NCBI GenBank assembly: GCA_012960105.1
Contig: DUBV01000005.1
Coordinates: 77,000-140,999 of the forward strand
Source: Thiotrichaceae bacterium
Lineage (GTDB): Bacteria > Pseudomonadota > Gammaproteobacteria > Eutrophobiales > Eutrophobiaceae
Length of the DNA: 64,000 nt
Direction: 5' to 3'
In this document: positions 14,017-62,899 of the stretch, in pieces
Layout of the letters: each line of letters opens with the position of its first letter
Numbering within the stretch: position 1 is the stretch's first letter
The notes under the pieces: model-generated
Database searches by the model: none
What the model saw: only the letters and a program-made list of their open reading frames with translations
Told to the model about the DNA's origin: nothing
Made by a program: the position numbers and the translations under genes

Positions 14017-15630
14017 ATGGATAAAGTTAATAAAATAATTCGTAATCAATCTAAATCCATAGATTGGCGTGCATTACAGTATTATAACTATTATCGAATT
14101 TTGCTCTCTGGCTTATTTGTTATATTGGTTTATATAGGCCAATTACCTGAACCGCTGGGTAGTCTAGATGATCATTTCTTTTCAATAACAAGCCATATTT
14201 ATTTATTACTAGCCCTAGTTTTTGCATGGTTCATATATAAGCAAGTTCCTCGACTTAATCTTCAGATAGCAGTTCATACTCTTGTCGATATCATCATGTT
14301 GAGTCTATTGATGTATTCGAGTAATGGACTAAGTAGTGGTTTTGGCATGCTCATTATTATTGCTGTTGCGGGCGGCAGTATCTTAAGAGAAGGCACGATT
14401 GCAATTCTATTTGCAGCTATTGCATCTTTCTCGGTTCTTGGCCATGAGTTATACATCCAGTTTTTTCGCGATTTCGATACGGTTAATTACACGCATGCAG
14501 GTATTTTGGGAGCCACTTTTTTTATAGCTGCAATTATAGGTAACCTTTTATCTGCTCGAGTACGTTCATCAGAAGCCTTAGCTGAACAGCAGGCGATTGA
14601 AATTAATGAATTAGCAAAATTGAACGAACATATTGTGCAACGCATGCAATCGGGAATTATTGTTTTAGATAGCAATATGAATATTTTGCTGATGAATGAA
14701 TCTTCTAAACGTTTACTGGGACAACAGGGAAAAGATACACATAAAATATTTAATTTCATTAATAATTATCTTAAAAATTATATTCATGAATGGCTACATA
14801 ATGATGCCCAACAGAATGTCATTATTAAGCTAGAGGAGGATGAAACTGAATTACAAGCCTCATTTATAAAACTAACGTTGGTTTCTAATTATCAAATATT
14901 AGTTTTTTTAGAGGATCTGGCTCGAATTAGACAACATGCTCAGCAACTTAAGCTCGTTTCTTTAGGTCGCTTGGCAGCGAGTATTGCGCATGAAATCAGG
15001 AATCCATTAGGTGCTATTAATCATGCCGGTCAATTATTGCAAGAATCCAATACGGTCAGTTTAGAAGATAAACGTTTAACAGAAATTATTAATGACCATT
15101 CACTTCGGGTTAATAATATAATTGAAAATGTATTAAGCGTTAGTCGCAGAGAACAAACAACGTCAGAGGAAATTGAAATATTTGGGTGGCTGAAAAATTT
15201 TGTAACTGAATTTGAACAACGATTTAATTTATCTGATGGGGATATCAGGCTGAATATAAAAAGAGATGATATTAATGTCAGGATGGATCCTTCTCAATTA
15301 CATCAAGTCATCTGGAATCTATGTGAAAATGCGATACGTTATAGCCAGGTTAAACCGGCTATTACGATAATTTTTGATCTAAGTAGTGAAACACAACGAC
15401 CTTATATTGATATAATTGATTACGGTTCTGGCATGTCTGAGGAAATTAAGCAGCAACTTTTTGAACCATTTTTCACAACAGAGACGAAAGGTTCTGGTTT
15501 AGGATTATATCTTGCCCGTGAACTATGTGAGGCCAACCAGGCAAGTTTGAATTTATACTCGACATCTGATGTGGGCTCAGTATTCAGGTTGAACTTTATG
15601 CCTCTCAACAAACAGGACGAATTAATTTAA
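14017..15630 (+). CDS. pilS: Sensor histidine kinase PilS
   Basis: About six N-terminal TM helices, PAS-like region, H-box AHEIRNPL, N-box NLCENA, FEPFFTT, GSGLGL; precedes pilR and pilA. Confidence 0.9.
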   Translation: MDKVNKIIRNQSKSIDWRALQYYNYYRILLSGLFVILVYIGQLPEPLGSLDDHFFSITSHIYLLLALVFAWFIYKQVPRLNLQIAVHTLVDIIMLSLLMYSSNGLSSGFGMLIIIAVAGGSILREGTIAILFAAIASFSVLGHELYIQFFRDFDTVNYTHAGILGATFFIAAIIGNLLSARVRSSEALAEQQAIEINELAKLNEHIVQRMQSGIIVLDSNMNILLMNESSKRLLGQQGKDTHKIFNFINNYLKNYIHEWLHNDAQQNVIIKLEEDETELQASFIKLTLVSNYQILVFLEDLARIRQHAQQLKLVSLGRLAASIAHEIRNPLGAINHAGQLLQESNTVSLEDKRLTEIINDHSLRVNNIIENVLSVSRREQTTSEEIEIFGWLKNFVTEFEQRFNLSDGDIRLNIKRDDINVRMDPSQLHQVIWNLCENAIRYSQVKPAITIIFDLSSETQRPYIDIIDYGSGMSEEIKQQLFEPFFTTETKGSGLGLYLARELCEANQASLNLYSTSDVGSVFRLNFMPLNKQDELI

Positions 15631-15632
15631 GC

Positions 15633-16940
15633 ATGTCTAAACTTGCACTAATCATAGATGATGAACCTGATATTCTGGAGTTATTACAGATAACATTGCA
15701 GCGAATGAAAGTCGATAGTCATTGTGCTGAAAATTTATCTACGGCGAGATCATTATTAAAAGAATATAAGTTTGATTTGTGTTTAACGGATATGAAGCTA
15801 CCAGATGGAGATGGTGTTGAATTTGTTAACGAATTACAAATAAATCATCCACAAATACCCATTGCTGTGATTACAGCGCATGGAAGTATGGACAGTGCTA
15901 TTCAGGCGTTGAAATATGGTGCATTTGATTTTTTGATAAAACCTGTCGATTTAAATTCGTTGAGATCTGTAGTGCAAAGTGCATTAAGTATTAAACCAAA
16001 ACAAGCTTCTACTAAGCCAAGCATCATTGGTAATAGTCAGATTATTCAAGATTTACGGGAAACTATTGGAAAGGTGGCGCGTAGTCAGGCACCTATTTAT
16101 ATCAGTGGTGAATCAGGGACAGGCAAAGAACTTGCGGCGCATATGATTCATGATTATGGCCCACGTTCAGATAAACCTTTCATCGCTATTAACTGTGGTG
16201 CTATTCCAAATGATTTAATGGAAAGCGAATTTTTTGGTCATATTAAAGGCAGTTTCACGGGGGCCGTTTCTGATAAAAAAGGATTGTTCCAAGCTGCGGA
16301 TGGAGGAACATTATTCCTTGATGAAGTCGCGGAATTGCCGCAACACATGCAGGTTAAATTATTACGTGCTATTCAGGAAAAAGTAGTGCGACCCATAGGT
16401 GCGCAGGAAGAGATTCATGTTGATGTTCGGATATTGAGTGCGACAAATTGTGATTTGTCAGAGCAAGTCAATCAGGGCTTATTTCGTCAAGATTTACTTT
16501 ATCGTATTAATGTCATTGAATTAAAAATACCTCCATTAAGATCAAGAGTAGAAGATATACCCGATCTAATTGAGCATATACTTAAAAAAATAGTTCTGGA
16601 TTCTGGTAATAAAAAACTGGAATTAAGCAAGGAAGCTGGACAATTACTGGAATCATATAATTTTCCTGGAAATATTAGAGAATTAGAAAATATTCTCGAA
16701 CGTGCCGCAACCTTATGTAGTGATAATCTTATCGACAAAGCAGATATACAACTTACTGAGTCTCCTCATACAGTGGATGAAAAACATACGGCATTAGATT
16801 CAATGTTGGGAGATATAGAAAAGCAAAAAATTATGGAAGCGCTTGAAAAAACAAGATGGAATAAAACGGCGGCAGCAAAGTTGCTTGGTATCAGTTTTCG
16901 GGCATTGCGATATCGATTAGAGAAGTTAGGTATGGATTAA
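15633..16940 (+). CDS. pilR: Sigma54-dependent response regulator PilR
   Basis: Receiver domain, GESGTGKE, ESEFFGHIKGSFTGA (GAFTGA variant), FLDEV, C-terminal HTH NKTAAAKLLGISFRALRYR. Confidence 0.93.
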   Translation: MSKLALIIDDEPDILELLQITLQRMKVDSHCAENLSTARSLLKEYKFDLCLTDMKLPDGDGVEFVNELQINHPQIPIAVITAHGSMDSAIQALKYGAFDFLIKPVDLNSLRSVVQSALSIKPKQASTKPSIIGNSQIIQDLRETIGKVARSQAPIYISGESGTGKELAAHMIHDYGPRSDKPFIAINCGAIPNDLMESEFFGHIKGSFTGAVSDKKGLFQAADGGTLFLDEVAELPQHMQVKLLRAIQEKVVRPIGAQEEIHVDVRILSATNCDLSEQVNQGLFRQDLLYRINVIELKIPPLRSRVEDIPDLIEHILKKIVLDSGNKKLELSKEAGQLLESYNFPGNIRELENILERAATLCSDNLIDKADIQLTESPHTVDEKHTALDSMLGDIEKQKIMEALEKTRWNKTAAAKLLGISFRALRYRLEKLGMD

Positions 16941-17118: not shown

Positions 17119-17134
17119 TGGCATAAATGATGCT
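17119..17134 (+). promoter_or_regulatory. Sigma54 (-24/-12) promoter of pilA
   Basis: TGGCATAAATGATGCT has exact GG-N10-GC spacing and lies between pilR and pilA. Confidence 0.85.
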
Positions 17135-17259: not shown

Positions 17260-17676
17260 ATGAAAAAAACACAACAGGGTTTTACCCTTATTGAATTGAT
17301 GATCGTTGTGGCAATTATCGGTATTCTTGCCGCAGTTGCTATCCCTTCTTATCAAGATTACACCAAGCGTGCGCATGTGGCTGAAGGTTTTAGTCTAGCG
17401 GGTGCAGCAAAGTTAGCAGTTGCAGAATACCATGCATCTGAAGGCGCATTTCCTACTACAAATGCTTCAGCGGGTATGTCATCTGCTACTTCTATCACTG
17501 GTAATGCTGTAAGAAGCGTTTCGGTTGGTGCTGCGGGTGCAATTACGATTACTTATAACACCAAAGTAACTGCAGGTGCGACTGTCGTATTAACGCCTTC
17601 AAATGCTATTGGCTCGATTAAATGGGTTTGTTCAGGTGGTGTAGCAACCAAGTTAAGACCTTCTAATTGTCGTTAA
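17260..17676 (+). CDS. pilA: Type IVa major pilin
   Basis: Leader MKKTQQG|[22 protein letters not shown] with Glu5, C-terminal Cys pair (WVC...NCR), AGGAG RBS. Confidence 0.97.
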
Positions 17677-17701: not shown

Positions 17702-17736
17702 AAGCCGTTGCTGCTTTAATGCAGCATCGGCTTTTT
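17702..17736 (+). terminator. Intrinsic terminator after pilA
   Basis: Stem AGCCGTTGCTGC / GCAGCATCGGCT (one mismatch) followed by a T run. Confidence 0.85.
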
Positions 17737-17758: not shown

Positions 17759-19675
17759 ATGAATAGATTCATAATAAATAAAATCCAGCCTTTCTTTATC
17801 CCCTTTGCTCTATTATTTTCTTATTTTATTTATTCTCCCGGCTTTAGTGGAACTTTTCTTTTTGACGATGGTGTTAATTTAGGTCAATTCGTAGAAATAC
17901 GTGTAGGAAACGAAGGCCTATGGCAATTTTTCAGTCATACAGAGCGTCCGTTAGCATTTCTCTCGTTCATGCTTAACGACAATGTTTGGCCATCTGCATC
18001 TGAAAGCTTTATTAAAACAAATGTTTTGTTGCACTTGCTTTCTGCTTGTTTATTGATGATTTGCCTTATTCTAATCGGTAAAAATCTAGCTTGGGACAGA
18101 AGAAAACGTGAATCAGTAGCCATGTTTGCTACCTTAATATGGATGGTTCATCCATTTTTTGTATCAACGGTACTCTATATAGTACAGCGGATGACTATAT
18201 TGTCAGCGATGTTTGTTGTACTTAGTTTAATTTCTTATCTGTACGGCCGCCTACAACTTAATAAAGGCAATAATAAAGCTTGGTTTTGGCTAATTTTTGC
18301 AACACCAATCTTTGGCTTATTTGGGTTTCTTTGCAAAGAAAACGCCGCATTAATACCTTTCTATTTACTAACTTTCGAAGCAATACTATTTTCTAATGAA
18401 AAACAGACGTCACGTTATTATCTTTTATGGAAGAGATGTTATATCTATCTACCAATAATTATTATGCTCGTGTGTGTTTTTATATTTAAAAATTCATGGA
18501 TAAATGATTATTCATTTCGAAGTTTTAGTTTAATTGAGAGGCTGCTAACACAGGCAAATATCCTCGTATATTATCTGTTTATGTTATTGATACCGAAATC
18601 ATCTACGACAGGACTCCATTATGAAAACTATCCAATTTCGACGAGTTTAATTGAACCTTGGACAACCTTATTAGCCGTTATATTTATTGTAAGCATTATT
18701 TTGTTTTCAATTTTCTATCGAAAGAAATATCCGATATTAACATTTTCGATACTTTTTTTCTTTTTTGGACATTTAATGGAGTCTACTTTTATTGCATTGG
18801 AACTATATTTTGAGCATCGTAACTACTTGCCTTCAATGATGTTTTTCTTTGCTCTGGCCCATATTTTGTTTCTCTGTTATGACAAATATAAAAGGAGCGT
18901 CATTTTAGCGGCGCTTGCTATAGTTTTTACATATAGTGGATTAACTTACGCCCGATCGGATTTATGGGGGAACCCATTATTGCTTTTGTCGGTCTGGACG
19001 GAAAATAACCCAGGTTCTTCTCGCAACTATATAGAAGGACACGTTCAAGCACATCGACTTCATCGATATGATTTGGCTCAAAAATTCCTGGAAAGGGGTA
19101 TAGAAGCGTTACCCGATAATATTTTTTTACGAATTGGTTATACTAGCTATGGTTGCGGAAGAGGGTCATTGCTGAAAAGTGATGTAGAAAAGCTGAAGAT
19201 CATGTTGGGAGAGACGGAACAAACTATTTCGCATTATCTTTATCAGAATCTTGCACAATTATTAGGAACTTCTTTTTCTCCTGATTGCAAACTTATAACG
19301 CATGAAGATATGAGAGAGATTATTTCTTCTGTATTAAATAACCCTAATATCTTGACGTATGAACTTAGACTACATGAAATGTTACATTTAATGGGGCGGT
19401 TTGAATTGCAAGTGGAAAATTATTCAGAAGCAAAAGAAGCGTTTTTAAAATCTTTGTTGCTTAATCTAAATCCATCTACTGCTCTCCAGCAAGTTGCTCT
19501 GATTGCTACTTTTGAACAATATGAATTAGCTTATGAATATCTAAAAGAAACAAGAGAGTTGATTTATGGGAGAGATGATGTAGAACTGCGTAAACAATCT
19601 GCAGGTTGGGAGGAATTTGAGTATATGGAATCTGTGTTATTAGAGGAATTGAAAGACATGCCTTTGAGAAATTAA
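17759..19675 (+). CDS. TMTC-like (GT-C fold with TPR-like tail) membrane glycosyltransferase; candidate pilin O-glycosyltransferase
   Basis: FLFDD in the first loop, RPL, NVLLH, HPFFVSTVLYIVQR, KENA, FEHRNYLPS and C-terminal TPR-like helices, in the same order as TMTC-family motifs. Confidence 0.72.
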   Translation: MNRFIINKIQPFFIPFALLFSYFIYSPGFSGTFLFDDGVNLGQFVEIRVGNEGLWQFFSHTERPLAFLSFMLNDNVWPSASESFIKTNVLLHLLSACLLMICLILIGKNLAWDRRKRESVAMFATLIWMVHPFFVSTVLYIVQRMTILSAMFVVLSLISYLYGRLQLNKGNNKAWFWLIFATPIFGLFGFLCKENAALIPFYLLTFEAILFSNEKQTSRYYLLWKRCYIYLPIIIMLVCVFIFKNSWINDYSFRSFSLIERLLTQANILVYYLFMLLIPKSSTTGLHYENYPISTSLIEPWTTLLAVIFIVSIILFSIFYRKKYPILTFSILFFFFGHLMESTFIALELYFEHRNYLPSMMFFFALAHILFLCYDKYKRSVILAALAIVFTYSGLTYARSDLWGNPLLLLSVWTENNPGSSRNYIEGHVQAHRLHRYDLAQKFLERGIEALPDNIFLRIGYTSYGCGRGSLLKSDVEKLKIMLGETEQTISHYLYQNLAQLLGTSFSPDCKLITHEDMREIISSVLNNPNILTYELRLHEMLHLMGRFELQVENYSEAKEAFLKSLLLNLNPSTALQQVALIATFEQYELAYEYLKETRELIYGRDDVELRKQSAGWEEFEYMESVLLEELKDMPLRN

Positions 19676-20023: not shown

Positions 20024-20440
20024 GTGAATATGATTAACAAAAAAAAAGAAACGACAAATATTGAGCCACTGGTAAATTTGTTACCACCATATACTGATGA
20101 AAGAGGTGCTATTTATCCTTTAGTTGATGCAACTATGCAGAGCGCAGTATTAATCACTTCAAAGAAAGGAAGTATACGTGCTAATCATTATCATAAAACA
20201 GATTGGCATTATTGCTATGTATTAGAAGGAATAATTGAATATTATCATCGCCCACACGGTTCAAAAGATGAGCCCGAGTGCGTTATGGTAAAGAAAGGCG
20301 AGATGATGTATACCCCTCCAATGGTTGATCACGCAATGCTATTTCCCGAAGATACGGTTTTCCTTACATTGGGCGGAAACCCGAGAGACCAAGAGACTTA
20401 TGAAGCGGATATTGAGCGTGTTGAATTGATAACATCATAA
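20024..20440 (+). CDS. Cupin-fold protein, putative NDP-sugar isomerase/epimerase (FdtA/RmlC-like)
   Basis: DERG, RANHYH, and downstream PPMVDHAM cupin motifs; first gene of a sugar operon. Confidence 0.72.
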   Translation: MNMINKKKETTNIEPLVNLLPPYTDERGAIYPLVDATMQSAVLITSKKGSIRANHYHKTDWHYCYVLEGIIEYYHRPHGSKDEPECVMVKKGEMMYTPPMVDHAMLFPEDTVFLTLGGNPRDQETYEADIERVELITS

Positions 20441-20448
20441 ACATACTC

Positions 20449-21687
20449 ATGGCTTTTTATCACCGAGATTCTTGCAGGTTGTGCAGTAGTGCAAATTTAG
20501 TCAAAGTTCTTTCGTTAGCATCAACGCCACCTGCGAATGCATTTGTTTCAAAAAATGAGTTAGATGAAAAACAAGATTGTTTTCCTCTTGAACTTTGGTT
20601 TTGTCGAGGCTGTTCGCACCTGCAATTATTAGACATTGTTGCTCCTGATATTTTATTCAGTGACTACGTTTATGTATCAGGAACATCGTCAGTCTTTGTT
20701 AAGCATTTTGAAAATTATGCTTCTACTATAATAAATTATGCCGAGTTGGATAAAGATAGTCTGGTTGTTGATATAGGTTCCAATGATGGTACGCTTTTGA
20801 GATGTTTTAAAGATGCTGGGTTTCGTGTCTTGGGTATTGACCCCGCAGCTAAAATTGCTGAGCAGGCTACAAAGTCGGGGATAGAAACGATACATGCCTT
20901 TTTTAATAAAGAAATTTCTGAAGAAATAAAAATGTCTTTCGGGCAGGCGGATGTTATCACCGCTAACAATGTATTTGCTCATATCGATAACCTCGAAGAA
21001 GTTATTTCTGGCGTCTACTCATTATTAAAAAATGATGCAATATTTGTCTTCGAAGTCTCATATTTACTGGATATGTATGAAAAAACTTTATTTGATATGA
21101 TTTATCATGAACATCTTGATTACCACTCGGTACAACCGCTGATGCAATTTTTTAAACGATATAACATGGAAATCATTAAAGCTGAGCGTGTAAATACTCA
21201 TGGTGGAAGTTTGCGTTGCTATGTCCAGAAAACTACAGCTAAGAAAAATGTTGATTCCAGTGTCAGTGAATTTATAAGCATGGAAAGAAAGCATAAGTTG
21301 GACGATGAAAATACTTTTATTTCATTTGCAAGAGAAATAAAAGAAAAAGGACAGGCTCTCAGATCTTTGCTTTCTGATTTAAAATCATCGGGTAAACGGA
21401 TTGCGGGGTTTGGCGCTCCTGCTAAGGCAACTACATTAATGTATCATTTTGGTATAGATGAAAATGATATTTCATTTATTATTGATGATAGTCCTATAAA
21501 GCAAGGACTATATAGCCCCGGACTTCATATTCCGGTACTGCCAGCATCGGCTATTGAAGAATTCAAACCGGATTATTTACTTATTCTTGCCTGGAATTTT
21601 GCAGACTCAATTGTAAGCAAGAATAAACAATTTTTGAACGATGGTGGTCAATTCATCATCCCGCTCCCTGAACTAAAAATTATATGA
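20449..21687 (+). CDS. NDP-sugar C-methyltransferase (TylC3/EryBIII/NovU-like)
   Basis: Zn site CRLC...CRGC, VVDIGSNDG, ANNVFAH, FDMIYHEH, HGGSLR, GFGAPAK, LAWNF. Confidence 0.86.
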   Translation: MAFYHRDSCRLCSSANLVKVLSLASTPPANAFVSKNELDEKQDCFPLELWFCRGCSHLQLLDIVAPDILFSDYVYVSGTSSVFVKHFENYASTIINYAELDKDSLVVDIGSNDGTLLRCFKDAGFRVLGIDPAAKIAEQATKSGIETIHAFFNKEISEEIKMSFGQADVITANNVFAHIDNLEEVISGVYSLLKNDAIFVFEVSYLLDMYEKTLFDMIYHEHLDYHSVQPLMQFFKRYNMEIIKAERVNTHGGSLRCYVQKTTAKKNVDSSVSEFISMERKHKLDDENTFISFAREIKEKGQALRSLLSDLKSSGKRIAGFGAPAKATTLMYHFGIDENDISFIIDDSPIKQGLYSPGLHIPVLPASAIEEFKPDYLLILAWNFADSIVSKNKQFLNDGGQFIIPLPELKII

Positions 21688-22745
21688 ATACATTTTTACT
21701 AATGACAGATGTTGATGAAATTATTGAACAATTAGATGAAATAACTGCTGATTATGATGGTAAAACAATATTGTTAGCAGGAGGACTTGGATTTCTTGGT
21801 CGCTATTTTATGTCTGTTTTCGCAAGATTAAATGAAACAAAGTTTAGTGAGCCATGTAAATTAATTATTCTTGATAATTTAATTACATCAGGAAAAGCAA
21901 GTAACTACATTGATCAATATCCAGAGTTTAAGTTCTTAGAACAAGATATAACAACCCCGTTAAATATTGATGAGCATATAGACTTTGTTATTCATTGTGC
22001 TGGAATAGCAAGTCCCTTTTACTATCGTGCACATCCTTTAGAAACAGCTGATGTGGCTATTGCTGGCAATAGAAACCTGTTGGAAGTTGCTAAGAGTAAT
22101 CAGGCACGCTACACATTTTTCAGTTCTAGTGAAATTTATGGTGACCCCGATCCTAAGCATATTCCAACACCTGAAAGTTATAGAGGCAATGTTTCTTCTC
22201 AAGGTCCGCGAGCTTGCTATGATGAAAGTAAGCGGATGGGGGAGACACTATGTTATATATATAACCACCTGCATGGAACTGCGACGACTATTATTCGGCC
22301 ATTTAATGTTTATGGGCCGGGGATGCAAGAGGCTGATTATCGAGTATTACCTAACTTTGCAAGTCTCATAAAAGCCGGGAAGCCTCTTAAGGTTTATGGA
22401 GGAGGGAATCAGACCCGGACTTTCTGTTATGTGACTGATGCGATCAATGGTTTTCTAAGGGCTATTGCCAAAGGAGTTCCTGGTGAAACCTATAATATCG
22501 GTAATCCTAAACCGGAAATTTCTATGGTTGAACTCGTGCAACACTGTAGCGATGCAATTGGAAAGAAAATTGATCATAATATTATAGAGTATCCTGATTC
22601 TTATCCTGCCGATGAACCTAATAGACGTTGTCCTGATATCCGTAAAGCTAAATTACAGCTTGAATATGTTCCTAATGTTGATCTTAAGACTGGATTGCAG
22701 CGCTTTTTGTCATGGACAGATGATAATTTTGTTGGGGAACAATGA
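21684..22745 (+). CDS. NAD-dependent epimerase/dehydratase, UDP-glucuronate decarboxylase (UXS)-like
   Basis: GGLGFLG, AGIASP, SSSEIYGDP, GPRACYDESKR, FNVYGPGM, QTRTFCYVTD, RRCPDI. Confidence 0.82.
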   Translation: MNTFLLMTDVDEIIEQLDEITADYDGKTILLAGGLGFLGRYFMSVFARLNETKFSEPCKLIILDNLITSGKASNYIDQYPEFKFLEQDITTPLNIDEHIDFVIHCAGIASPFYYRAHPLETADVAIAGNRNLLEVAKSNQARYTFFSSSEIYGDPDPKHIPTPESYRGNVSSQGPRACYDESKRMGETLCYIYNHLHGTATTIIRPFNVYGPGMQEADYRVLPNFASLIKAGKPLKVYGGGNQTRTFCYVTDAINGFLRAIAKGVPGETYNIGNPKPEISMVELVQHCSDAIGKKIDHNIIEYPDSYPADEPNRRCPDIRKAKLQLEYVPNVDLKTGLQRFLSWTDDNFVGEQ

Positions 22746-23656
22746 GTGAAGACTTAAAAATCGGTCTTATTGGAGCAGGGAAATGGGGAAAGAATATAAT
22801 TCTTACGCTGGATACTATACCTGGGGTTCAACTCACACATATAGCTACTCGTATACAGAAATCAGTAGAAAATATACCGTCATCCTGTGTTGTTAGTACG
22901 AACTGGAGAGATGTAGTTACGAATTATGATTTAGACGGTATCATTATTGCCTCCCCTGCTGGTTTGCATGCTGAAATGTCTGCATATGCTTTGAAACAAA
23001 ATAAAGCCGTTTTTGTAGAAAAACCTATGACATTGACAGTAGTTGAGGCGCAACAACTTTACGATCTTGTTGAAGAATATTCCGGTATTTTACATGTTGA
23101 CTATACAGACATAGCCAATCCTGCATGGCAAAGTTTAAAGGACAATCTATCTTTAGTCGGAGATATTAATAGCATAGAGGCTAAATTCGGTGGTATGGGG
23201 CCAGTACGAGCAGATGTGACGCCGCTATGGGACTGGGGGACACATCCAATAGCTTTAATTATTAGTTTGCTAGAAGAGCCAATTCACGTCAGTGCTAACT
23301 ATCGGTATAAAAATCATACTGAAATTGGTTATATTGAAGATATCAATATAGTACTTGATTACAAAATGATTAATGCAAAGGTTTCGGTAAGTAACAATTA
23401 TTCAGAGTCAATACGAAAATTATCTATTGAAGGAAATAAAGGAAGCCTGATCTATGATGATAAAGCTATTAATAAATTATTGTTCATAACAAAAAATATA
23501 ACAAAAAAAATAGAGTACTCAAAAATTTCTCCATTAAGATCTGCTTTAGATCGTTTTAAAGAATCTATTGTTAAAGGTTCGCCATATTATAAAGATGTGT
23601 CATTAGGATTGCGAGTGACAAAAGTGTTATCAAAACTAGATGCAGTTTTAAATTGA
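22742..23656 (+). CDS. Gfo/Idh/MocA family oxidoreductase
   Basis: IGLIGAGKWG, ASPAGLH, VFVEKPM, WDWGTH; ATGA overlap with the upstream gene. Confidence 0.85.
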   Translation: MSEDLKIGLIGAGKWGKNIILTLDTIPGVQLTHIATRIQKSVENIPSSCVVSTNWRDVVTNYDLDGIIIASPAGLHAEMSAYALKQNKAVFVEKPMTLTVVEAQQLYDLVEEYSGILHVDYTDIANPAWQSLKDNLSLVGDINSIEAKFGGMGPVRADVTPLWDWGTHPIALIISLLEEPIHVSANYRYKNHTEIGYIEDINIVLDYKMINAKVSVSNNYSESIRKLSIEGNKGSLIYDDKAINKLLFITKNITKKIEYSKISPLRSALDRFKESIVKGSPYYKDVSLGLRVTKVLSKLDAVLN

Positions 23657-23733
23657 GCAAGTCGTTAGCTTCGATGTGGACTGCATAAACATTCAATTTA
23701 TTTATGAAAAAATATTAAATTATTTTATAAGTT

Positions 23734-25290
23734 ATGAATAATCGATATATTTTTGAATCTACTTCAAACATTGTAATAGCAGCTATCATAATAGCTGTTT
23801 CTATTTTCTATTTTTACTTTACTTCAGGTGATAGTGTTGTTGGTATGTTGGGAGATGATGCGGCATATTTGCTGCAGGCTGAGCTGTACTCGCCCTGGGT
23901 TAATGATAGTTCCCCCGCAATTGATTACATACAAAAAAGGAGTTTTTATCCGCCAATATATCCTATCGTATTAGGAATGTTTGGCGCGGATACTCATAAC
24001 TTAATTCTTGCCTCTAACTTAACCGTATCTTTTTTATTATTATCATTTTTAATCATTGGATATTTTGTATATGTTCTAACGGAATCAAAATTTACAGCTA
24101 TATTAATCGCTTTAATGGTAGCTTTTCTTCCAAAATCATTATTGTTTTCGCAAGATTTGTATAGCGAATTTCTTTTTATGTGTTTTATTTACGCGGCCTT
24201 TATATTAGTGAATGATAATGAGATTAGTTCAGAGCAGTGGTTGTTAGGGGCATTAGTTATTTCGTTAGCTTCATTAACAAGATCAATAGGAATCGGTTTG
24301 TCTTGTGCTTTTATAATATTATTAATTATTAAGCGTCCAAGGTATTATTTTTATTATATTTCTCTTTCCTGCATGCCATTTTTAATGTGGATGTTTAATC
24401 GCTATGTGTTGATTGGTGATGTGAGCTATATTACTCAGATGGTGGCTAATTCAAATGCAATAAGTGCTTATGATGTCTTTAGTTTATTGCAAAATAAAAT
24501 TATTATTTTAATTCAAAGTTGGTCGAGACTTTTTACGTCCAAAGTGGACAATACTATTTTTGTTACTTCATTTTTAGTGATGTTTTTTATTCTTTCGTTA
24601 ATTGGATTCTATTCACGATTGATTAAATATAAACTCGATGCGATATTCATTCCTGTTTATTTGTTACTAGTAATAATATGGCCGTTTAACGAGTTTTATT
24701 TATTAGAGCGGTTTATTTATCCCGTCTTTCCCGTACTGTTAATCTATATAATAATAGCCATTCAAAAATTATTTTCTCAAAAAAAATATCAATACATTTC
24801 ATTTGGCGTAATATTATTATTTAATATAAGTATCGTTTTGCCTACGAGTATCAGCTATATAAAGAGAGGTTTCATAGATATTGAACCAAATTTAAAGCCT
24901 TACACAAGAACAGGACACTGGTTGGCGACAAAAGATTACGAAGATGCTTTTCAATATGCATCTATTTTAAAAGTAGTAATCGAATCATTACCGTACGTAT
25001 CAAATTATGTGCCTGAAAGCGCATGTATTTATTCGGCTCGGACACCTTTAGTATTATTATTTACACATCGTAAAAGTTTGTACTTTCCGGATGTAAAAAA
25101 TTCGGCAGATGATTTCCATGAATATACTAGTACATGTGATTATTTTCTTGCTATGCCAATGACATCTTCGAATAAGCAATCTATATATTACCCAATAGAA
25201 ATAGTTAAGTCTGATGCTAGATATGAGGTGTTTCCAATTGCAGATGAAAAACAGGGTAAAAATAAAATATTTCTAATTAAAAGAATTTGA
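23734..25290 (+). CDS. Polytopic membrane protein, putative GT-C-fold glycosyltransferase (paralogue B)
   Basis: GDDAAYLLQA, YPPIYP, YSEFLF, TRSIG, RFIYPVFP; shares motifs with 4012 and 27120. Confidence 0.72.
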   Translation: MNNRYIFESTSNIVIAAIIIAVSIFYFYFTSGDSVVGMLGDDAAYLLQAELYSPWVNDSSPAIDYIQKRSFYPPIYPIVLGMFGADTHNLILASNLTVSFLLLSFLIIGYFVYVLTESKFTAILIALMVAFLPKSLLFSQDLYSEFLFMCFIYAAFILVNDNEISSEQWLLGALVISLASLTRSIGIGLSCAFIILLIIKRPRYYFYYISLSCMPFLMWMFNRYVLIGDVSYITQMVANSNAISAYDVFSLLQNKIIILIQSWSRLFTSKVDNTIFVTSFLVMFFILSLIGFYSRLIKYKLDAIFIPVYLLLVIIWPFNEFYLLERFIYPVFPVLLIYIIIAIQKLFSQKKYQYISFGVILLFNISIVLPTSISYIKRGFIDIEPNLKPYTRTGHWLATKDYEDAFQYASILKVVIESLPYVSNYVPESACIYSARTPLVLLFTHRKSLYFPDVKNSADDFHEYTSTCDYFLAMPMTSSNKQSIYYPIEIVKSDARYEVFPIADEKQGKNKIFLIKRI

Positions 25291-25364
25291 TTTTTTTTAC
25301 AGGGTTAATATTATTTTGAGGAGTTTGCCTATTAATTAGTGCGTGTAGATGTAAGAGTTAAGTA

Positions 25365-26060
25365 TTAATGGAAGAATAATCGAGCTCTGATAATCATCAG
25401 TAAAACTGCAATAGAGTGATAAGCTTTGATTTTTTTCCCATCTTCGTATGTGCGCCCATGATAACTAATAGGGACTTCATAAAATACTTTTCCTTTTCGA
25501 ACTGCTTTAGATAAAATTTCTGCTTGTTGTTCCCAACCTTCAGTTTTTAGTTGTTCCGCATCAATCAATGAACGACGAATAACAAGATAACAACTATATA
25601 TATCAGTAAAAGTTGTATTGTTAAGAATATTAAATAAAAATGTTATCAGTCTATTTCCTATTTTATGCCAGTAATAATGAACGCGTGTGCATTGAGGAGC
25701 AATAAACCTGCTTCCATATACGATATCAGCAGAAAATTTTAAAATGGGGTAAAATAATAAACTATAGTCATCAGGGTCATATTCTAAATCTGCATCTTGA
25801 AATAATATATATTCGCCCTTAGATGCTTTTAATCCTTCTTTAATCGCTGCGCCTTTTCCTTTGTTATGAGAGAGTTGAATAATTTTTGAATATAGCTCTG
25901 GGTGTTGTTGCAATACGAGTAGAGTTTCATCTATTGAACCATCATCAATGATTATTATTTCAAAAGTGATGTCATCAATATGTTGTGCATTTACTTTATT
26001 AAGTAATTTTATAATGGAAGCGCTTTCATTATAAACAGGAATTAAAATAGAAATTAACAT
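25365..26060 (-). CDS. GT2 glycosyltransferase, DPM1-like polyprenyl-phosphate sugar synthase
   Basis: SILIPVYNE, DDGSIDET, NKGKGAAI, QDADLEYDP, VYGSRF, YHGRTYEDGKKI. Confidence 0.88.
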   Translation of the reverse strand: MLISILIPVYNESASIIKLLNKVNAQHIDDITFEIIIIDDGSIDETLLVLQQHPELYSKIIQLSHNKGKGAAIKEGLKASKGEYILFQDADLEYDPDDYSLLFYPILKFSADIVYGSRFIAPQCTRVHYYWHKIGNRLITFLFNILNNTTFTDIYSCYLVIRRSLIDAEQLKTEGWEQQAEILSKAVRKGKVFYEVPISYHGRTYEDGKKIKAYHSIAVLLMIIRARLFFH

Positions 26061-26186
26061 GGCATATTTATGGGAATTTATAGTCCACTTAAAATAGTAG
26101 AGTAGAAACCAATTGTCAAAATAATAAATATATTGTAACTAAAAATAAAGTAAGATGTATGAATTTTATCATCAGGCATTACAGAT

Positions 26187-26909
26187 ATGAAAAATATAAT
26201 TGTTGAATCTATTGAGAAGCCTCAATATTTTGGCCGAGACTTGGAAGCGATGTCTTTTGCTACTAACTACCATAACTGGATTGCAGATGAATTTAAGCCA
26301 TACTTAGGAAATAATGTTGCTGAAATTGGAGCGGGAACAGGAAATTTTTCAAAATTACTAATTGAAAGCACAAAAAAAATAGTTGCATTTGAGCCTTCAG
26401 AAAATATGTTTCCTCAGCTCCAAGAGCAACTGAGGGAATACAAGAGTATTACAAAAATTAATAATTATTTTGTTGATGAATATTTAAAGTATAAAGAACA
26501 CTTTGACTCAGTTGTATATGTCAACGTGTTAGAGCACATAGAAGGTGATGAGAAAGAACTTAGTTGTGCCTATAGTGGGTTAAAAAAAGGGGGGCACATA
26601 TTAATTTTCGCTCCTGCACTCTCTTATTTATATAGTGATTTTGATCGAAAAGTTGGGCACTATCGACGTTATCACAAAAAAGATCTGATAATGATCGTTA
26701 AACGAGCAGGATTCAAAATAGTAGATGTGAGGTATTTAGATTTTATTGGTATTTTACCGTGGTATGTAGCTCTTGTTCTACTAGCGAAGACCCTATCCGC
26801 GGAGAAAGTTTCGCTATATGATACTTTAGTTATTCCAATTGTACGGAAAATAGAGAGCATAATTACTTTTCCAATAGGAAAAAATATCCTGTTGATAGCA
26901 CAAAAATAA
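26187..26909 (+). CDS. Class I SAM-dependent methyltransferase
   Basis: EIGAGTG, FDSVVYVNVLEHI, LKKGG, DRKVGHYRRY. Confidence 0.85.
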   Translation: MKNIIVESIEKPQYFGRDLEAMSFATNYHNWIADEFKPYLGNNVAEIGAGTGNFSKLLIESTKKIVAFEPSENMFPQLQEQLREYKSITKINNYFVDEYLKYKEHFDSVVYVNVLEHIEGDEKELSCAYSGLKKGGHILIFAPALSYLYSDFDRKVGHYRRYHKKDLIMIVKRAGFKIVDVRYLDFIGILPWYVALVLLAKTLSAEKVSLYDTLVIPIVRKIESIITFPIGKNILLIAQK

Positions 26910-27119
26910 TTACAGAAGATTAGGGGTGTTGATTTATTTGCTGTTTATGTACTTATTTTATATAAATTCTCAAATACCCTAATATTTTAGTCCTCATTAT
27001 TGCATTCTTTACTAAGGCTGTTTTTTTGATTATGAAAAAATTATGTTTAAGTCTGATCAGGCCATGTCTCATTTTATTAAGATAGTCATGTTGGAATTTT
27101 CATAAACGGTCTTAAGAAA

Positions 27120-28676
27120 ATGATTTCTAGAAATATATTTCTCCAGAAAATCTTCATGCCAATTGGAGCATGCTCAGTAGTCATTATTTCTATTATTGCC
27201 ACTTTATATTTTATATGGACGTGGAGTCCTATTCTCGCTCAGTTTGGTGGAGATAATGCAACATACCTGCTGACAGCTAAATTGTTTTCACCTTATTCTC
27301 AATCAACTTACGCTGTAGAATATTTTTCTATTCATAGTCGATACCCCCCGCTTTATCCATTGTTATTGGGTTTGCTAGGAGGAGGTGAAAGTGTATTAAT
27401 TGCACACTTATTAACGACATCATTTCTAATAGCGGCCATTTTAGTTTTGTATAAATGGGCTTCCATCATGGGGCTCGGAAGATTACATTCTTTAGTGTTG
27501 ATTGTTATTTTTTCTATGATGCAAAATACGTATATGCAGGCTTTATCAATACTTAGTGAAAATCTCTATTTGTTGCTAAGTTTGTCAGTGCTGTACATAA
27601 TTTCGTTGAAAGATAATAGTGAAAAATGGGCTTGGGTTGCAGTGCTTCTCATTGTATGTGCTACTTTGACTCGAAGTGCAGGACTTCCTTTGGTTTTGTC
27701 TTTTATCATCTATCTATTTATAAATAGAAATAATAATAAATATCTATTTTCATTCTCTGCAATATTGCCAATGATCGCATGGGGGCTATTTAATAATCAG
27801 GATAGCATTTCATATGCCGGTCAATTTTCTGATCGTTATTCTACTGACCTTGTTTCTATATTATTACAAATACTAGATCAATCAGTTTATATGTTAAGTA
27901 TATGGCACCGGTCATTTACTAATGGAAACACTGGATATTTATTATTATCTATTATTGCTATTTTTTGTTTTTTTGGAATGATGTACAGTTTATATTTAAA
28001 GAGAATAGAAGGAATATATGTTTTTTTGTATATGTTAATGGTTCTTGCTTGGCCATACCCTGCTGAATCTATGAGGTTATTGTACCCTGTCATTCCTGTT
28101 CTTCTGGTTCAAACGAGCTTCATGATAAAAAATTTAATGCCTAGTTTGAATTCTGTATATGGCTTCCATAAAGGAAATTTTGTTATACAAGGAATATTAC
28201 TAATTATTTTAGTGCCAAATCTTGTGTTAACAATCAACAGGTTTAATGCGCCGGTTGATGAGTATTTAATGCCCTATAAACGGACGTATGATTGGTATAA
28301 TCCAAATCCTGTTGCAGCTGTAAATGGAGTGAGATTTACTCATGGAGTAATTTCAAGCCTTAAAGATGCGAGGAACTATATACCTGAGGATCAATGTGTT
28401 TATAGTATAAAGCCTTCTATCATTGGCTTATATATGGAGCGAATAAGTCATAAACCTCCTGTTGCAAGTATCGATGATATAAGTTTTTATAAACTTATAG
28501 AGCAATCTGAATGCAGACATTTTTATTTGCTGCCATTTGCAAGCCCTACTTATAATCAGCCATTCTATCCTTACGAAAGGATGAAGGATTATATTGACAT
28601 TATTAAAGTATATTATTTAGATGGCAACAATAAGGGAAATATTGTTGCTATATTGGCTAAGTTGAATAATATTTAA
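27120..28676 (+). CDS. Polytopic membrane protein, putative GT-C-fold glycosyltransferase (paralogue C)
   Basis: GGDNATYLLTA, YPPLYP, LSENLY, TRSAG, RLLYPVIP; shares motifs with 4012 and 23734. Confidence 0.72.
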   Translation: MISRNIFLQKIFMPIGACSVVIISIIATLYFIWTWSPILAQFGGDNATYLLTAKLFSPYSQSTYAVEYFSIHSRYPPLYPLLLGLLGGGESVLIAHLLTTSFLIAAILVLYKWASIMGLGRLHSLVLIVIFSMMQNTYMQALSILSENLYLLLSLSVLYIISLKDNSEKWAWVAVLLIVCATLTRSAGLPLVLSFIIYLFINRNNNKYLFSFSAILPMIAWGLFNNQDSISYAGQFSDRYSTDLVSILLQILDQSVYMLSIWHRSFTNGNTGYLLLSIIAIFCFFGMMYSLYLKRIEGIYVFLYMLMVLAWPYPAESMRLLYPVIPVLLVQTSFMIKNLMPSLNSVYGFHKGNFVIQGILLIILVPNLVLTINRFNAPVDEYLMPYKRTYDWYNPNPVAAVNGVRFTHGVISSLKDARNYIPEDQCVYSIKPSIIGLYMERISHKPPVASIDDISFYKLIEQSECRHFYLLPFASPTYNQPFYPYERMKDYIDIIKVYYLDGNNKGNIVAILAKLNNI

Positions 28677-28707: not shown

Positions 28708-29565
28708 ATGAAAATAAGTATTATTATCCCTGCGCTTAATGAAGGTGAGAGCTTGAAACACTTATTGCCAGTATTGGTAAGCGAATATCCGAACACGGAA
28801 ATCATCATTGTTGATGATGGATCTACTGATGTAACTAAAGAGATATGTGCAGCTCAAGGTGTAATCTGTCTCAGTCACCCTTATAGGAAGGGCAATGGTG
28901 CGGCTATTAAAACAGGCGTTCGAGCTGCAACTGGTAAGATGTTTGTATTTATGGATGCAGATGGCCAGCATGATCCCAAGAATATTTCAGGGATGCTTAA
29001 AAAAATTGACGAGGGATTTGATATGGTTGTTGGTGCCAGATCAGCCTCTTCACAAGCTAGTGTAGGTCGGCTATGTGCTAATACCCTATATAATTGGTTC
29101 GCATCTTTTATGGTGGGACAAAAAATTGAAGATCTAACCTCCGGCTTTCGTGCAGTAAGAGCCGAGAAATTCAAGAAATTTCTTTATCTTTTACCAAATG
29201 GATTTTCTTATCCCACTACGTGCACGATGGCATTCTTTCGATCTGGTTATAGCGTTGGATATATACCTATTGAAGCGAATAAAAGAATAGGTAAAAGTCA
29301 TATCAAGTTGCTAAAAGATGGAATACGATTTTTATTGATATTGTTCAAAATTGGTACATTATATTCACCATTAAAAATATTTTTTCCCTTAAGTCTAATT
29401 AGCTTACTTACAGGGATGTTATATTATGTATACACTTTTATGGCGATGGGTCGATTTACTAATATGAGTGCTTTACTGTTTACAACATCAGTTACTATTT
29501 TTCTAATGGGACTAATCTCTGAACAAATTACTAGTTTGCTCTATTCAAAAGCGGGCGATAATTAA
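28708..29565 (+). CDS. GT2 glycosyltransferase with two C-terminal TM helices (polyprenyl-phosphate sugar synthase-like)
   Basis: SIIIPALNE, VDDGSTD, GNGAAIKTG, MDADGQHDP, DLTSGFRA, hydrophobic C-terminus. Confidence 0.88.
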   Translation: MKISIIIPALNEGESLKHLLPVLVSEYPNTEIIIVDDGSTDVTKEICAAQGVICLSHPYRKGNGAAIKTGVRAATGKMFVFMDADGQHDPKNISGMLKKIDEGFDMVVGARSASSQASVGRLCANTLYNWFASFMVGQKIEDLTSGFRAVRAEKFKKFLYLLPNGFSYPTTCTMAFFRSGYSVGYIPIEANKRIGKSHIKLLKDGIRFLLILFKIGTLYSPLKIFFPLSLISLLTGMLYYVYTFMAMGRFTNMSALLFTTSVTIFLMGLISEQITSLLYSKAGDN

Positions 29566-30371: not shown

Positions 30372-31433
30372 CTATGCTCTAAGAATTGTTGCTAGCTCAG
30401 TATAATACTGTTGCGCAACATGACTCCATAGACATTTTGTTTCAATATAACGTTTTGTTTTTGTAGATAAATCTTGCCGTAGGTTATCATCATCCAAAAG
30501 TGCAGATAATACCTTTGCATAATCTATCGATTTTTCAGGGTTTACCAACAGTCCATTTTCACCATGTTTGATTGCATCACATAATCCTTCTAGCTTAGAA
30601 GCAACAATTGGTAAGCCAGCTGCTCCCGCCTCAAGTACAACCAGGCCAAAGCCTTCCATATCTCCTTCAATCGGAATATTAGGTTGAACAAATATGTCTG
30701 CTGCTTGTAATAAAGCCACCTTTTGTTCATCACTGACCGAACCGAGTAGTATGACTCTATCCTGTAAACCAGATGCCACAATAGATTTTTCTATATCAAG
30801 TCTATCAGAACCATCTCCTGCAATAAGATAAATGACATTATTATCCAGTTTGTTCATAACTTCTCTGACAAACCAGGAGACACCTTTCCGTTTAACCAGA
30901 CGTCCTATGGTTAACAGATATTTCTTTTCAGCTTGTAAGTTTAATAAATTTCTCGCTTCAGTTTGACTCATAGTGGCATTAAAAAGATTTACACCAAGTG
31001 GGATAAAAACACAGCTTTTTTCATCAATACCATGAACTACAGCCTGATGAATTGTTTCATTGCTACAAGCAAATAAGGAATCAAGTCGTTTCAAAGCAAA
31101 CTTTACCCAAAGTCTTTGATAAAAAGAGTTTCTAAAAGTCACATCCAGACCAACAATAATTGAAACGACGGGTTTTCGAGTTAAAACTTTTAACAACCAA
31201 CCGGATAGTCCTAAAACACCATCACCTAATAAAATGACATCATATTTTCGAGCTATAAATAATGCTTTTATGAATGAATAGAATAGGAAGAAAGGAAGGG
31301 CTGATTTTCCTTGGGTATTAGCGATGACTTTTATATCTGCGAACTCAGTTAGAGCATGAGATATCTCAAAGTTTAGTTTTTCTATGCCGCCAACAACAGG
31401 AGGATAGGCTCTGGATATAAATAGGATTTTCAT
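30372..31433 (-). CDS. GT4 glycosyltransferase
   Basis: YPPVVGG, GRLVKRKG, EGFGLVVLEA (E-x7-E). Confidence 0.9.
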   Translation of the reverse strand: MKILFISRAYPPVVGGIEKLNFEISHALTEFADIKVIANTQGKSALPFFLFYSFIKALFIARKYDVILLGDGVLGLSGWLLKVLTRKPVVSIIVGLDVTFRNSFYQRLWVKFALKRLDSLFACSNETIHQAVVHGIDEKSCVFIPLGVNLFNATMSQTEARNLLNLQAEKKYLLTIGRLVKRKGVSWFVREVMNKLDNNVIYLIAGDGSDRLDIEKSIVASGLQDRVILLGSVSDEQKVALLQAADIFVQPNIPIEGDMEGFGLVVLEAGAAGLPIVASKLEGLCDAIKHGENGLLVNPEKSIDYAKVLSALLDDDNLRQDLSTKTKRYIETKCLWSHVAQQYYTELATILRA

Positions 31434-62524: not shown

Positions 62525-62899
62525 TTAATTTAAATTAGCCATGTCTTTATCTGACACAGCAGTTACTAATAATTTTTCAGAAAGTTTATTAAGTTGTTTT
62601 TGAACTCTTTGATCTTGTTTTTTGAAACACAAACCGATCAAACCGAAGTCTTTCCATACGACCAGTGCTTCTAGAATAATACTGGTATTATCATCCTGAA
62701 TAAGGATTTTACAGTCTTGCTTCGGTTGCATTTCAACATCAGTAGGTTCAACAATTTGCATTCCATTACCTGAGATATTTCTCATTTTGGTAATATATTC
62801 CTGATCATCAATATAGGTGGTTATATCAAGATCAGCATAGATACGACCGTTATTTCGACGGTTATCGTTATTACGTTTTTTATTACGTCTGTCTCTCAT
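62525..62899 (-). CDS. Single-domain PilZ protein
   Basis: RxxxR motifs, NISGNG, ALVVW...IGLCF. Confidence 0.8.
   Translation of the reverse strand: MRDRRNKKRNNDNRRNNGRIYADLDITTYIDDQEYITKMRNISGNGMQIVEPTDVEMQPKQDCKILIQDDNTSIILEALVVWKDFGLIGLCFKKQDQRVQKQLNKLSEKLLVTAVSDKDMANLN

Follow-up and report, generated by a model that had tools for sequence, protein, structure and literature searches.

Introduction

Glycosylation of type IV pilins alters phage susceptibility, antigenicity and pilus behaviour. To our knowledge just two types of pilin glycosylation enzyme have been characterised, TfpO/PglL and TfpW, the latter in one species and with one unusual sugar. Here we analysed a gene that follows the major pilin gene pilA in a 64,000-nt stretch of a Thiotrichaceae genome (contig DUBV01000005.1; the whole stretch is called the window). 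The gene occupies positions 17759..19675 of the forward strand, and its 638-residue product, P0001, is likely to be a TfpW-like O-glycosyltransferase encoded in a pilin cassette, with a polyprenyl-phosphate sugar as its donor.

TfpW is a GT-C arabinosyltransferase of the P. aeruginosa/paraeruginosa group IV pilins (Pa5196, PA7). It is described in 10.1101/2020.04.19.049825 as a 646-residue protein with its N-terminus in the cytoplasm, 11 predicted transmembrane (TM) helices and a periplasmic C-terminal tetratricopeptide repeat (TPR) domain, encoded right after pilA and co-transcribed with it. The same source finds a DDx motif of periplasmic loop 1 to be essential, gives Y-x6-PF-x7-P as a motif of loop 4 and names ArnT as the best modelling template. 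It reports that genes adjacent to pilA in Azotobacter, Acinetobacter venetianus, Teredinibacter, P. indica and Kingella encode homologs, and it proposes that the enzyme polymerises and transfers oligomers. Phage protection is cited for both TfpO and TfpW in PMC11841053. TfpO/PilO and PglL are of the Wzy_C/O-antigen-ligase type and use pyrophosphate-linked O-units; TfpO shares the slot after pilA and a glycosylated pilin with the system proposed here, but P0001 is unrelated to these enzymes and matches neither Wzy_C nor PglL_A.

Two further systems bear on the gene. The TMTC proteins, metazoan protein O-mannosyltransferases (TMTC1-4) of the GT-C/PMT clan, have, as presented in PMC7801869, 11 TM helices, an inward N-terminus and TPRs on the non-cytoplasmic side, and prokaryotic homologues are stated there to exist. 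All human TMTCs match Pfam DUF1736, within the loop that joins TM7 to TM8, at E<1e-30, and Table 4 of that article lists the motifs DD, SHKSYRP(L), RxD, KE(T/Q)xxT, DW and ERxxY. A three-component logic is set out in PMC11127046, in which a GtrB-like family 2 glycosyltransferase (GT2) makes an undecaprenyl-phosphate sugar and a periplasmic GT-C enzyme uses that sugar.

The gene after pilA encodes a predicted GT-C enzyme with a TPR tail

The gene is an exact entry in the list of open reading frames (ORFs) of the window and starts with ATG. Every motif that the initial annotation had quoted from it is present in the translation: an acidic pair in FLFDD (D36, D37), TERPL (R63-P64-L65), TNVLLHLL, the segment HPFFVSTVLYIVQR running from H131 to R144, CKENAA (K193-E194) and YFEHRNYLPS (E352 to S359), followed by a helical tail. 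The product divides into two domains:

17759..18973 (+), N-terminal 11-helix GT-C glycosyltransferase domain, residues 1-405 (AlphaFold2 model, Foldseek, invariant residues)
18974..19675 (+), C-terminal periplasmic TPR domain, residues 406-638, about 12 helices, with the stop codon (model, TPR profile matches)

Profile and sequence searches reported the tail alone. No Pfam or NCBIfam model matched P0001 at E<=0.01, with only weak TPR matches at E<=10, and PDB sequence searches returned TPR proteins alone, both for the single sequence and for the full-length family profile, whose matches include PilF and the OGT TPR. The profile of the N-terminal domain found nothing real in PDB (best E 0.57, spurious). 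Of 50 relatives, 34 match Pfam models for TPRs, and the TPR region of P0001 holds about six TPR-like hairpins in roughly 230 residues.

Structure prediction identified the N-terminal domain. The AlphaFold2 model of whole P0001, made with a 50-sequence alignment (predicted local distance difference test, pLDDT, 93.3; predicted TM-score, pTM, 0.90), has 11 long hydrophobic helices up to residue 403 and then about 12 shorter TPR-like helices. Because TPR proteins swamped a Foldseek search with the whole model, in which AglB appeared only at rank 30, the N-terminal 410 residues were modelled alone (73 sequences; pLDDT 90.8, pTM 0.92). Among the rows listed for this domain against PDB, ranks down to 29 were all AglB, STT3, PglB, Pmt1/2/4, ArnT or PIG-U, and the first unrelated protein came at rank 30 with a probability of 0.14. 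The three PIG-U rows scored probabilities of 0.87-0.97 and TM-scores (TMq) of 0.33-0.36; the remaining families scored 0.95-1.00 and 0.39-0.56. AglB matched with E 9.8e-4 and TMq 0.50, Pmt1-Pmt2 and ArnT had probability 1.00, and Pmt4 gave the best TM-score (TMq 0.56). At the level of predicted structure, a GT-C fold with a TPR tail is supported, in agreement with the initial annotation.

Short loops rich in lysine and arginine (residues 110-118, 169-173, 214-226, 320-323 and 375-379) alternate with the loops that hold invariant residues. This pattern indicates an N-in, C-out topology, which in turn places the invariant residues and the TPR domain on the periplasmic side. The predicted periplasmic loops carry D36/D37 and R63-P64 (loop 1), Q143-R144 (loop 2), K193-E194 (loop 3), Y272 to P279 (loop 4), and E341 with E352-H-R-N-Y356 (loop 5). 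In the alignment of N-terminal domains, all 73 sequences share D36, D37, R63, K193, Y272, E341 and E352-H-R-N-Y356 without variation, so the motifs of P0001 go beyond chance. Section 8 of PMC7801869 characterises GT-C enzymes by an acidic pair, DD or DxD, in their first extracytoplasmic loop and by an arginine conserved ahead of TM10; P0001 has the former in D36/D37 and the latter in R354 (73/73). Two cysteines of the TPR domain, C466 and C510, recur in at least 90% of the sequences, a pairing that would fit a periplasmic disulfide.

Going by published descriptions, the closest characterised analogue is Pseudomonas TfpW, which the initial annotation overlooked. The two proteins agree in size, in their 11 TM helices, in the TPR domain and in the slot behind pilA, and also in the DD of loop 1 (invariant) and in the first half of the loop-4 motif, Y272-x6-P279, where the tyrosine is invariant and the proline is present in at least 90% of sequences. 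Unlike TfpW, P0001 is not followed by tfpX, and its conserved partner is a GT2 related to GtrB and dolichol-phosphate mannose synthase (DPMS) rather than a DprE1/DprE2/phosphoribosyl pathway, which implies a different sugar. The PMT family of O-mannosyltransferases (Pmt1/2/4) and ArnT, whose donors are single sugars on a monophosphate, share with P0001 the GT-C fold, the loop-1 acidic pair and a DPMS/ArnC-type GT2 partner; P0001 differs in having no PMT or PMT_2 Pfam match and a TPR domain in place of MIR, and ArnT acts on lipid A. A literature search, with subscription journals outside its coverage, found no title on a GT2-coupled TfpW-like system.

Homologs recur between a pilin gene and a GT2 gene

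The neighbours of the gene that recur in its relatives are:

17260..17676 (+), pilA, type IVa major pilin, 138-residue prepilin (Pfam Pilin 7.7e-25, N_methyl 1.7e-10)
17702..17736 (+), Rho-independent-terminator-like hairpin with T-run (sequence, terminator scan, folding)
28708..29565 (+), GT2 polyprenyl-phosphate glycosyltransferase P0488, 285 residues with hydrophobic C-terminal stretches (Pfam Glycos_transf_2 3.6e-31)

The family is large. Among 8000 scored candidates 3451 matched P0001 at E<=1e-3, and an exhaustive scan counted 22166 representative clusters at E<=1e-3, of which 4821 reached E<=1e-30. Relatives that carry a name are called 'tetratricopeptide repeat protein' or 'hypothetical protein'; 3/120 among the matches listed bear the JGI name 'protein O-mannosyl-transferase'. 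A locus scan with one genome per species yielded 610 confirmed loci. The best 80 were used for synteny, and 75 of these had enough upstream sequence for adjacency to be tested; a pilin was counted when it lay on the same strand and ended <=700 nt upstream. The 80 loci belong to Thiotrichaceae, Acinetobacter, Moraxella, Pseudomonas/Stutzerimonas-like bacteria, Rhodanobacteraceae, Woeseiaceae, Competibacteraceae, methanotrophs and others.

In 50 of the 75 testable loci the homolog has a pilin gene directly upstream, which bears out the assignment of the gene to the slot after pilA; in 64/80 a pilin is present anywhere in the locus. Several Acinetobacter homologs occupy this slot, and most pilin-less Woeseiaceae loci have the gene flanked by zapD on one side and coaE-pilD-pilC-pilB on the other, still within a pilus cluster. 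The commonest downstream neighbour is an ortholog of P0488 (54-67% identity), found <=400 nt downstream on the same strand in 33/75 loci; 3 further loci have it within 3 kb, and another 4 at some other place in the locus. Both neighbours, pilin upstream and GT2 downstream, occur together in 27 loci. The order pilA, homolog, GT2 is also that of locus L001, which encodes the nearest relative of P0001 (59% identity); in a midpoint-rooted FastTree phylogeny of the N-terminal domain, which is descriptive only, the window groups with L001, and 11/17 other leaves of the clade have an adjacent GT2. In 20 loci the GT2 is followed by a family 4 glycosyltransferase (GT4), and 14 loci hold an ABC exporter of the PglK/MsbA type.

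About 17 loci, including L007, L010, L053 and L056 (Competibacteraceae/Contendobacter), hold tandem copies of the TPR-bearing GT-C gene (TPR-GT-C), often with two pilin genes; this arrangement suggests one matched enzyme per pilin allele. In one Rhodanobacter locus an EptA-type phosphoethanolamine transferase lies downstream of the homolog (L005:11796-13778), and in one Acinetobacter locus a PglL/Wzy_C-type O-oligosaccharyltransferase lies upstream of it (L015:6297-7931).

The GT2 at 28708 is the probable donor synthase

P0488 has the profile of the GtrB/DPMS/ArnC type: a GT2 domain, hydrophobic stretches in the C-terminal quarter (beyond about residue 208), and similarity to all three enzymes. 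Its best PDB match is DPMS (4.1e-14), next to ArnC (6.9e-14) and GtrB (4.3e-10, over residues 2-274). NCBIfam matches are AglJ (9.3e-36), PpgS (8.4e-22), a Dol-P-hexose transferase (8.5e-21) and ArnC (7e-17); as all of them fall under the curated cut-offs, the sugar cannot be named. P0488 is probably the maker of a lipid-linked sugar donor for P0001. A DPM1-like GT2 at either 25365 or 28708 had been proposed for this task, and the second candidate is preferred because its orthologs stand directly downstream of the homolog in 33/75 loci. The first, at 25365-26060 (-), is a 231-residue protein that is likewise DPMS-like (5.3e-17) and 37% identical to P0488 over 139 residues. In locus L029 a GT2 of the 25365 type pairs with a homolog of the 518-residue membrane proteins described below, and a GT2 of the 28708 type follows the TPR-GT-C gene.

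GtrA/GtrB/Gtr* systems resemble the window in joining a GtrB-type GT2, to which P0488 aligns over nearly its whole length, with a GT-C enzyme. They differ in that the acceptor here would be a protein and not O-antigen, and in the TPR domain borne by the GT-C enzyme. A gene of the GtrA family was not seen; the candidate flippases are an LPG_synthase_TM-type protein in the window and the ABC exporters of the 14 loci mentioned above.

A terminator-like hairpin separates pilA from the gene

Upstream of pilA lie the genes of a regulatory pair:

14017..15630 (+), PilS-like sensor histidine kinase (Pfam 6TM_PilS 2e-32, HisKA, HATPase_c)
15633..16940 (+), PilR-like sigma-54-dependent response regulator (Pfam Response_reg 1.3e-27, Sigma54_activat 4.2e-68, HTH_8)

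The spacer between pilA and the gene measures 82 nt. Its hairpin (17702-17733) pairs AAGCCG-T-TGCTGC with GCAGCA-T-CGGCTT in a GC-rich, interrupted 12-bp stem and enters TTTTT at 17732-17736. It lies 26 nt past the pilA stop codon and 22 nt ahead of the ATG, so that the gene does start just past the pilA terminator as first annotated. The structure was flagged independently by a terminator scan, and the 96-nt region around it folds at -27.8 kcal/mol (z = -4.46), a value equalled by 0/200 shuffles. When a spacer hairpin was required to fold at -8 kcal/mol or lower and to precede a run of four or more T's, it was present between pilin and homolog in 40/50 loci versus 103/940 shuffled spacers (11%). 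Terminators that attenuate pilin accessory genes are presented as a general feature of such cassettes in PMC11841053.

The pilA ATG is preceded by AGGAG at 8 nt. Upstream of the P0001 gene no Shine-Dalgarno sequence comparable to that of pilA is visible, and translation of P0001 is for this reason probably weak. The spacer has no convincing sigma-70-like site, the region containing 11 promoter-like sites versus 15.9 expected. Transcription would probably start at a PilSR/sigma-54-controlled pilA promoter and reach the gene by read-through of the pilA terminator. The earlier proposal of low expression by read-through thus gains the hairpin, here and in related loci, as support, and read-through itself is what we infer.

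A sigma-54-like -24/-12 element, TGGCAT-N5-ATGCT, lies at 17119-17134, 126 nt upstream of the pilA ATG, in keeping with the PilS/PilR genes next to it; sites that match as well are no commoner in the window than chance (35 vs 28.4 expected). A small PilZ-domain protein is encoded at the far end of the window (62525-62899).

The TPR domain diverges together with the pilin head

Across loci, L001 excluded, the TPR domain is only 12-22% identical to that of the window protein, versus 29-38% for the N-terminal domain. Distances between pilin heads correlate with distances between TPR domains when N-terminal domain distance is controlled for (partial r 0.365; 0/2000 permutations as high; n=51), and the reverse partial correlation in the 51 pilin/enzyme pairs is -0.07. 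This covariation, a property of the sequences, fits a TPR domain that would read the pilin.

Mature PilA has a serine- and threonine-rich alpha-beta loop with NASAG at Ser63, and a serine or threonine at this position in the context N-x-S-A-G-[LVIM] is found in 22/51 pilins, that of the window included. Ser63 is the glycosylated residue of Neisseria PilE; a search of PMC9239064 for that site found no passage. In the Pa5196 pilin the glycosylation sites given are Thr64/Thr66 (10.1101/2020.04.19.049825). A complex prediction of P0001 with mature PilA reached a median score of 0.15, against a mark of 0.32, and speaks neither for nor against binding. Recognition of the pilin by P0001, as proposed in the initial annotation, is putative, with synteny and TPR-pilin covariation as its basis.

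Glycan genes around the donor synthase

In the window, about 9 kb of sugar-tailoring genes separate the P0001 gene from the 28708 GT2, and other glycan genes follow:

20024..28676, block between the P0001 gene and the 28708 GT2 (Pfam; GC 0.30-0.35)
30372..31433 (-), GT4 glycosyltransferase, tentatively assigned to the module (Pfam Glycos_transf_1 4.1e-37)
31662..32606 (+), LPG_synthase_TM-type membrane protein of the MprF flippase-domain family (Pfam PF03706 1.9e-12)

In 33 related loci the two genes have no such block between them. Its first part (20024-23656) encodes a cupin, a sugar C-methyltransferase (Methyltransf_13/14), an epimerase/dehydratase and a GFO/IDH/MocA oxidoreductase, a set that suggests a C-methylated or deoxy sugar. 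It also holds the GT2 at 25365-26060, a methyltransferase and two membrane proteins of 518 residues (23734-25290 and 27120-28676). The latter are paralogs with 27% identity, have GDD or GDN after the first helix and lack a Pfam match; their language-model neighbours are PMT_2/GT39-type clusters, and they are probably additional GT-C glycosyltransferases. The second of them ends 32 nt ahead of the 28708 GT2. The genes of the block may elaborate the same glycan or serve another.

Homologs of the GT4 were found in 22/80 loci, at 29-44% identity among the 12 matches listed. The LPG_synthase_TM-type gene is near the GT2, methyltransferase and GT4 genes, and in L056 a protein with the same Pfam domain (7.9e-07) is encoded beside a methyltransferase gene, a few kb from a 28708-type GT2; as a candidate lipid-sugar flippase it is a weak lead. 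Further on, 33196-34230 encodes a GDP-mannose 4,6-dehydratase (Pfam 2.7e-129); in each of the three loci L005, L041 and L065 a homolog (51-52% identity) is encoded 2-4 kb downstream of the TPR-GT-C gene. On the other side of pilA, more envelope-glycan genes encode a 528-residue protein with a borderline PMT_2 match (4012-5598; 1.2e-5), a 436-residue GT2 with an N-terminal extension (8121-9431) and a 603-residue protein without a Pfam match (9698-11509). Alignment by hhalign of the N-terminal domain profile of P0001 with 9698-11509, 27120-28676 and 4012-5598 gave no relation, a weak test in that the targets were single sequences.

A model for P0001 and the points that weigh against it

We propose that P0001 is an inner-membrane GT-C enzyme whose 11 TM helices present the active-site residues to the periplasm. 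The active site would comprise D36/D37 in loop 1, K193/E194 in loop 3 and E352-H-R-N-Y356 before TM10. The periplasmic TPR domain would dock the membrane-anchored PilA subunit before assembly, and the sugar would pass from a polyprenyl-phosphate donor to a serine or threonine in the head of the pilin, plausibly one near Ser63 in the alpha-beta loop. The donor would most likely be made on the cytoplasmic face by the GT2 at 28708-29565 and then be flipped by some protein. The modified pili may be masked from pilus-specific phages, as published for TfpW.

Several observations count against this model. Kinship with TfpW is not seen directly: among the matches listed in the homolog searches there is no P. 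aeruginosa/paraeruginosa or A. venetianus protein. A homolog from a Pseudomonas locus, used as query, listed 120 matches, all at least 68% identical, those with names being Stutzerimonas, Pseudomonas and relatives, and a profile of nine Acinetobacter and Moraxella sequences listed no A. venetianus protein among its named matches. Unlike TfpW, P0001 lacks the PF-x7-P half of the loop-4 motif, as P279 is followed by K and the next proline stands at 292 (+13 rather than +9). The 58 window ORFs scanned include no D-arabinofuranose (D-Araf) genes, namely DprE1/E2 and prenyl-phosphoribose synthase, which may lie elsewhere in the genome; no DprE1/DprE2-type genes occur either among 54 neighbour-family representatives scanned from related loci. 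With the pathway missing from the ORFs scanned, the donor would differ from that of the one characterised case. The donor synthase is 9 kb away and directly behind the GT-C-like gene 27120-28676, a possible real client, and 35/75 loci have no 28708-type GT2 in the flank examined. As most of the top fold matches are oligosaccharyltransferases with pyrophosphate-linked donors, the fold by itself leaves the type of donor unsettled. The Mantel test leaves in both shared ancestry and a faster clock of the TPR domain, and on average the alpha-beta loops of pilins paired with homologs are not enriched in serine and threonine (0.222 vs 0.222). Expression of the system and modification of the pilin are predictions from sequence and models.

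Alternative explanations

A kinship closer to the TMTCs, a resemblance to which the initial annotation had pointed out, would make P0001 a true ortholog-level relative that attaches one mannose residue, the donor being polyprenyl-phosphate-mannose from a DPM1-like GT2. The architecture is the same as that given in PMC7801869, down to the 11 TM helices, the inward N-terminus and the non-cytoplasmic TPRs, and the prokaryotic homologues stated there, together with the three JGI names reported above, are in keeping with it. The motif list first drawn up for the TMTCs is largely upheld by Table 4 of that article. By eye, P0001 has the DD of M1 and the K/E of M4 (K193-E194); M2 is present with a one-residue deletion (S59-H-T-E-R-P-L...S-F-M-L-N73 vs SHKSYRPLCVLTSFRLN); and in M7 the E and Y of E352-H-R-N-Y356, which is followed by LPS, keep the spacing of ERxxY with the R shifted by one. 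The DD, SH..RPL..SF.LN, KE and E.R.Y motifs stand on equivalent loops, a TMTC_DUF1736 cluster ranks 25th (0.92) among the language-model neighbours of P0001, and the best solved relative of the 28708 GT2 is Dol-P-Man synthase; a donor from a DPM1-type GT2 and protein-specific O-glycosylation are likewise common to TMTC1-4 and to the system proposed here. Yet P0001 has no match to TMTC_DUF1736 (PF08409) even at E<=10, so that membership of this Pfam family is not supported, and this domain was not among 25 families listed for 50 relatives at E<=1. That list ends with a family of a single member, which leaves room for a match in at most 1/50. In M3, R144 lacks its aspartate, no conserved DW (M5) was found, and bacterial PMT_2/GT39 clusters outrank the TMTC cluster (0.98 vs 0.92). 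The substrate here would be pilin and the lipid presumably undecaprenyl rather than dolichyl phosphate. Mannose is a guess, given that the GT2 matches hexose, N-acetylgalactosamine (GalNAc) and Ara4FN transferases about equally and below curated cut-offs. We regard this explanation as unlikely. So too is transfer en bloc of an undecaprenyl-pyrophosphate glycan, built by the GT4 and others, to the pilin by an O-oligosaccharyltransferase that would act like TfpO/PglL on a GT-C/STT3-like scaffold. The predominance of oligosaccharyltransferases among the top fold matches (AglB, STT3, PglB), the GT4 and exporter genes that accompany the module in other loci and the proposed oligomer transfer by TfpW itself (10.1101/2020.04.19.049825) speak for it. 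Against it stand the most conserved partner, a GtrB/DPMS/ArnC-type GT2 whose products are, according to PMC11127046, single sugars linked by a monophosphate, the lack of an initiating phosphoglycosyltransferase among the 58 window ORFs scanned, and the rank of Pmt4 as best TM-score.

The pilin might also not be the substrate. P0001 could act on lipopolysaccharide, on another envelope glycan or on many periplasmic proteins, with the 28708 GT2 serving the 518-residue protein encoded just ahead of it, and its linkage to pilA would then reflect a shared, variable surface-antigen island. The region is packed with glycan genes, a pilin is missing directly upstream in 25/75 loci, and 22166 representative clusters are too many to assume one substrate. 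In 33 loci, however, the GT2 comes directly after the TPR-GT-C gene, and a homolog of the 518-residue proteins is not found between them; such homologs occur in just 2/80 loci, one of which, L029, has the homolog beside a 25365-type GT2; and pilin adjacency, conserved terminators and the covariation of TPR domain and pilin all point to pilin, which leaves this explanation rather improbable. It is very improbable indeed that P0001 is a non-catalytic chaperone or assembly factor of the pilin, comparable to TfpX/Y/Z or PilF, that has kept a GT-C-like fold as PIG-U has. TPR proteins do assist pilus biogenesis, PilF is among the TPR matches, and the fold matches include PIG-U, which is GT-C-like but non-enzymatic; but the residue classes of active GT-C enzymes (the loop-1 DD, the loop-3 K/E and the arginine before TM10) are all invariant, and the conserved neighbour is a donor-synthase gene. 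Taken together, these considerations favour a TfpW-like pilin O-glycosyltransferase that takes its sugar from a polyprenyl phosphate.

Implications

A reading that joins several of these elements is possible, though we hold it only tentatively. The family of P0001 would be the prokaryotic counterpart, and possibly the evolutionary source, of the eukaryotic TMTCs, and together with the GT2 it would form a portable two-gene module in the pilin cassettes of many Gammaproteobacteria that O-glycosylates the pilin with a monophosphate-linked sugar, plausibly at N-x-S63-A-G. The TPR domain would co-diversify with the pilin head and so give each pilin allele its own matched anti-phage mask, and the intervening GT-C/GT2 pairs and tailoring enzymes would elaborate the glycan.

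The results suggest a far larger and almost unannotated family with the architecture of TfpW, the pilin-linked branch of which is coupled to a GtrB/DPMS-type GT2 instead of an arabinose pathway. This family may offer bacterial models of how TPR-bearing GT-C enzymes such as the TMTCs choose their protein substrates.

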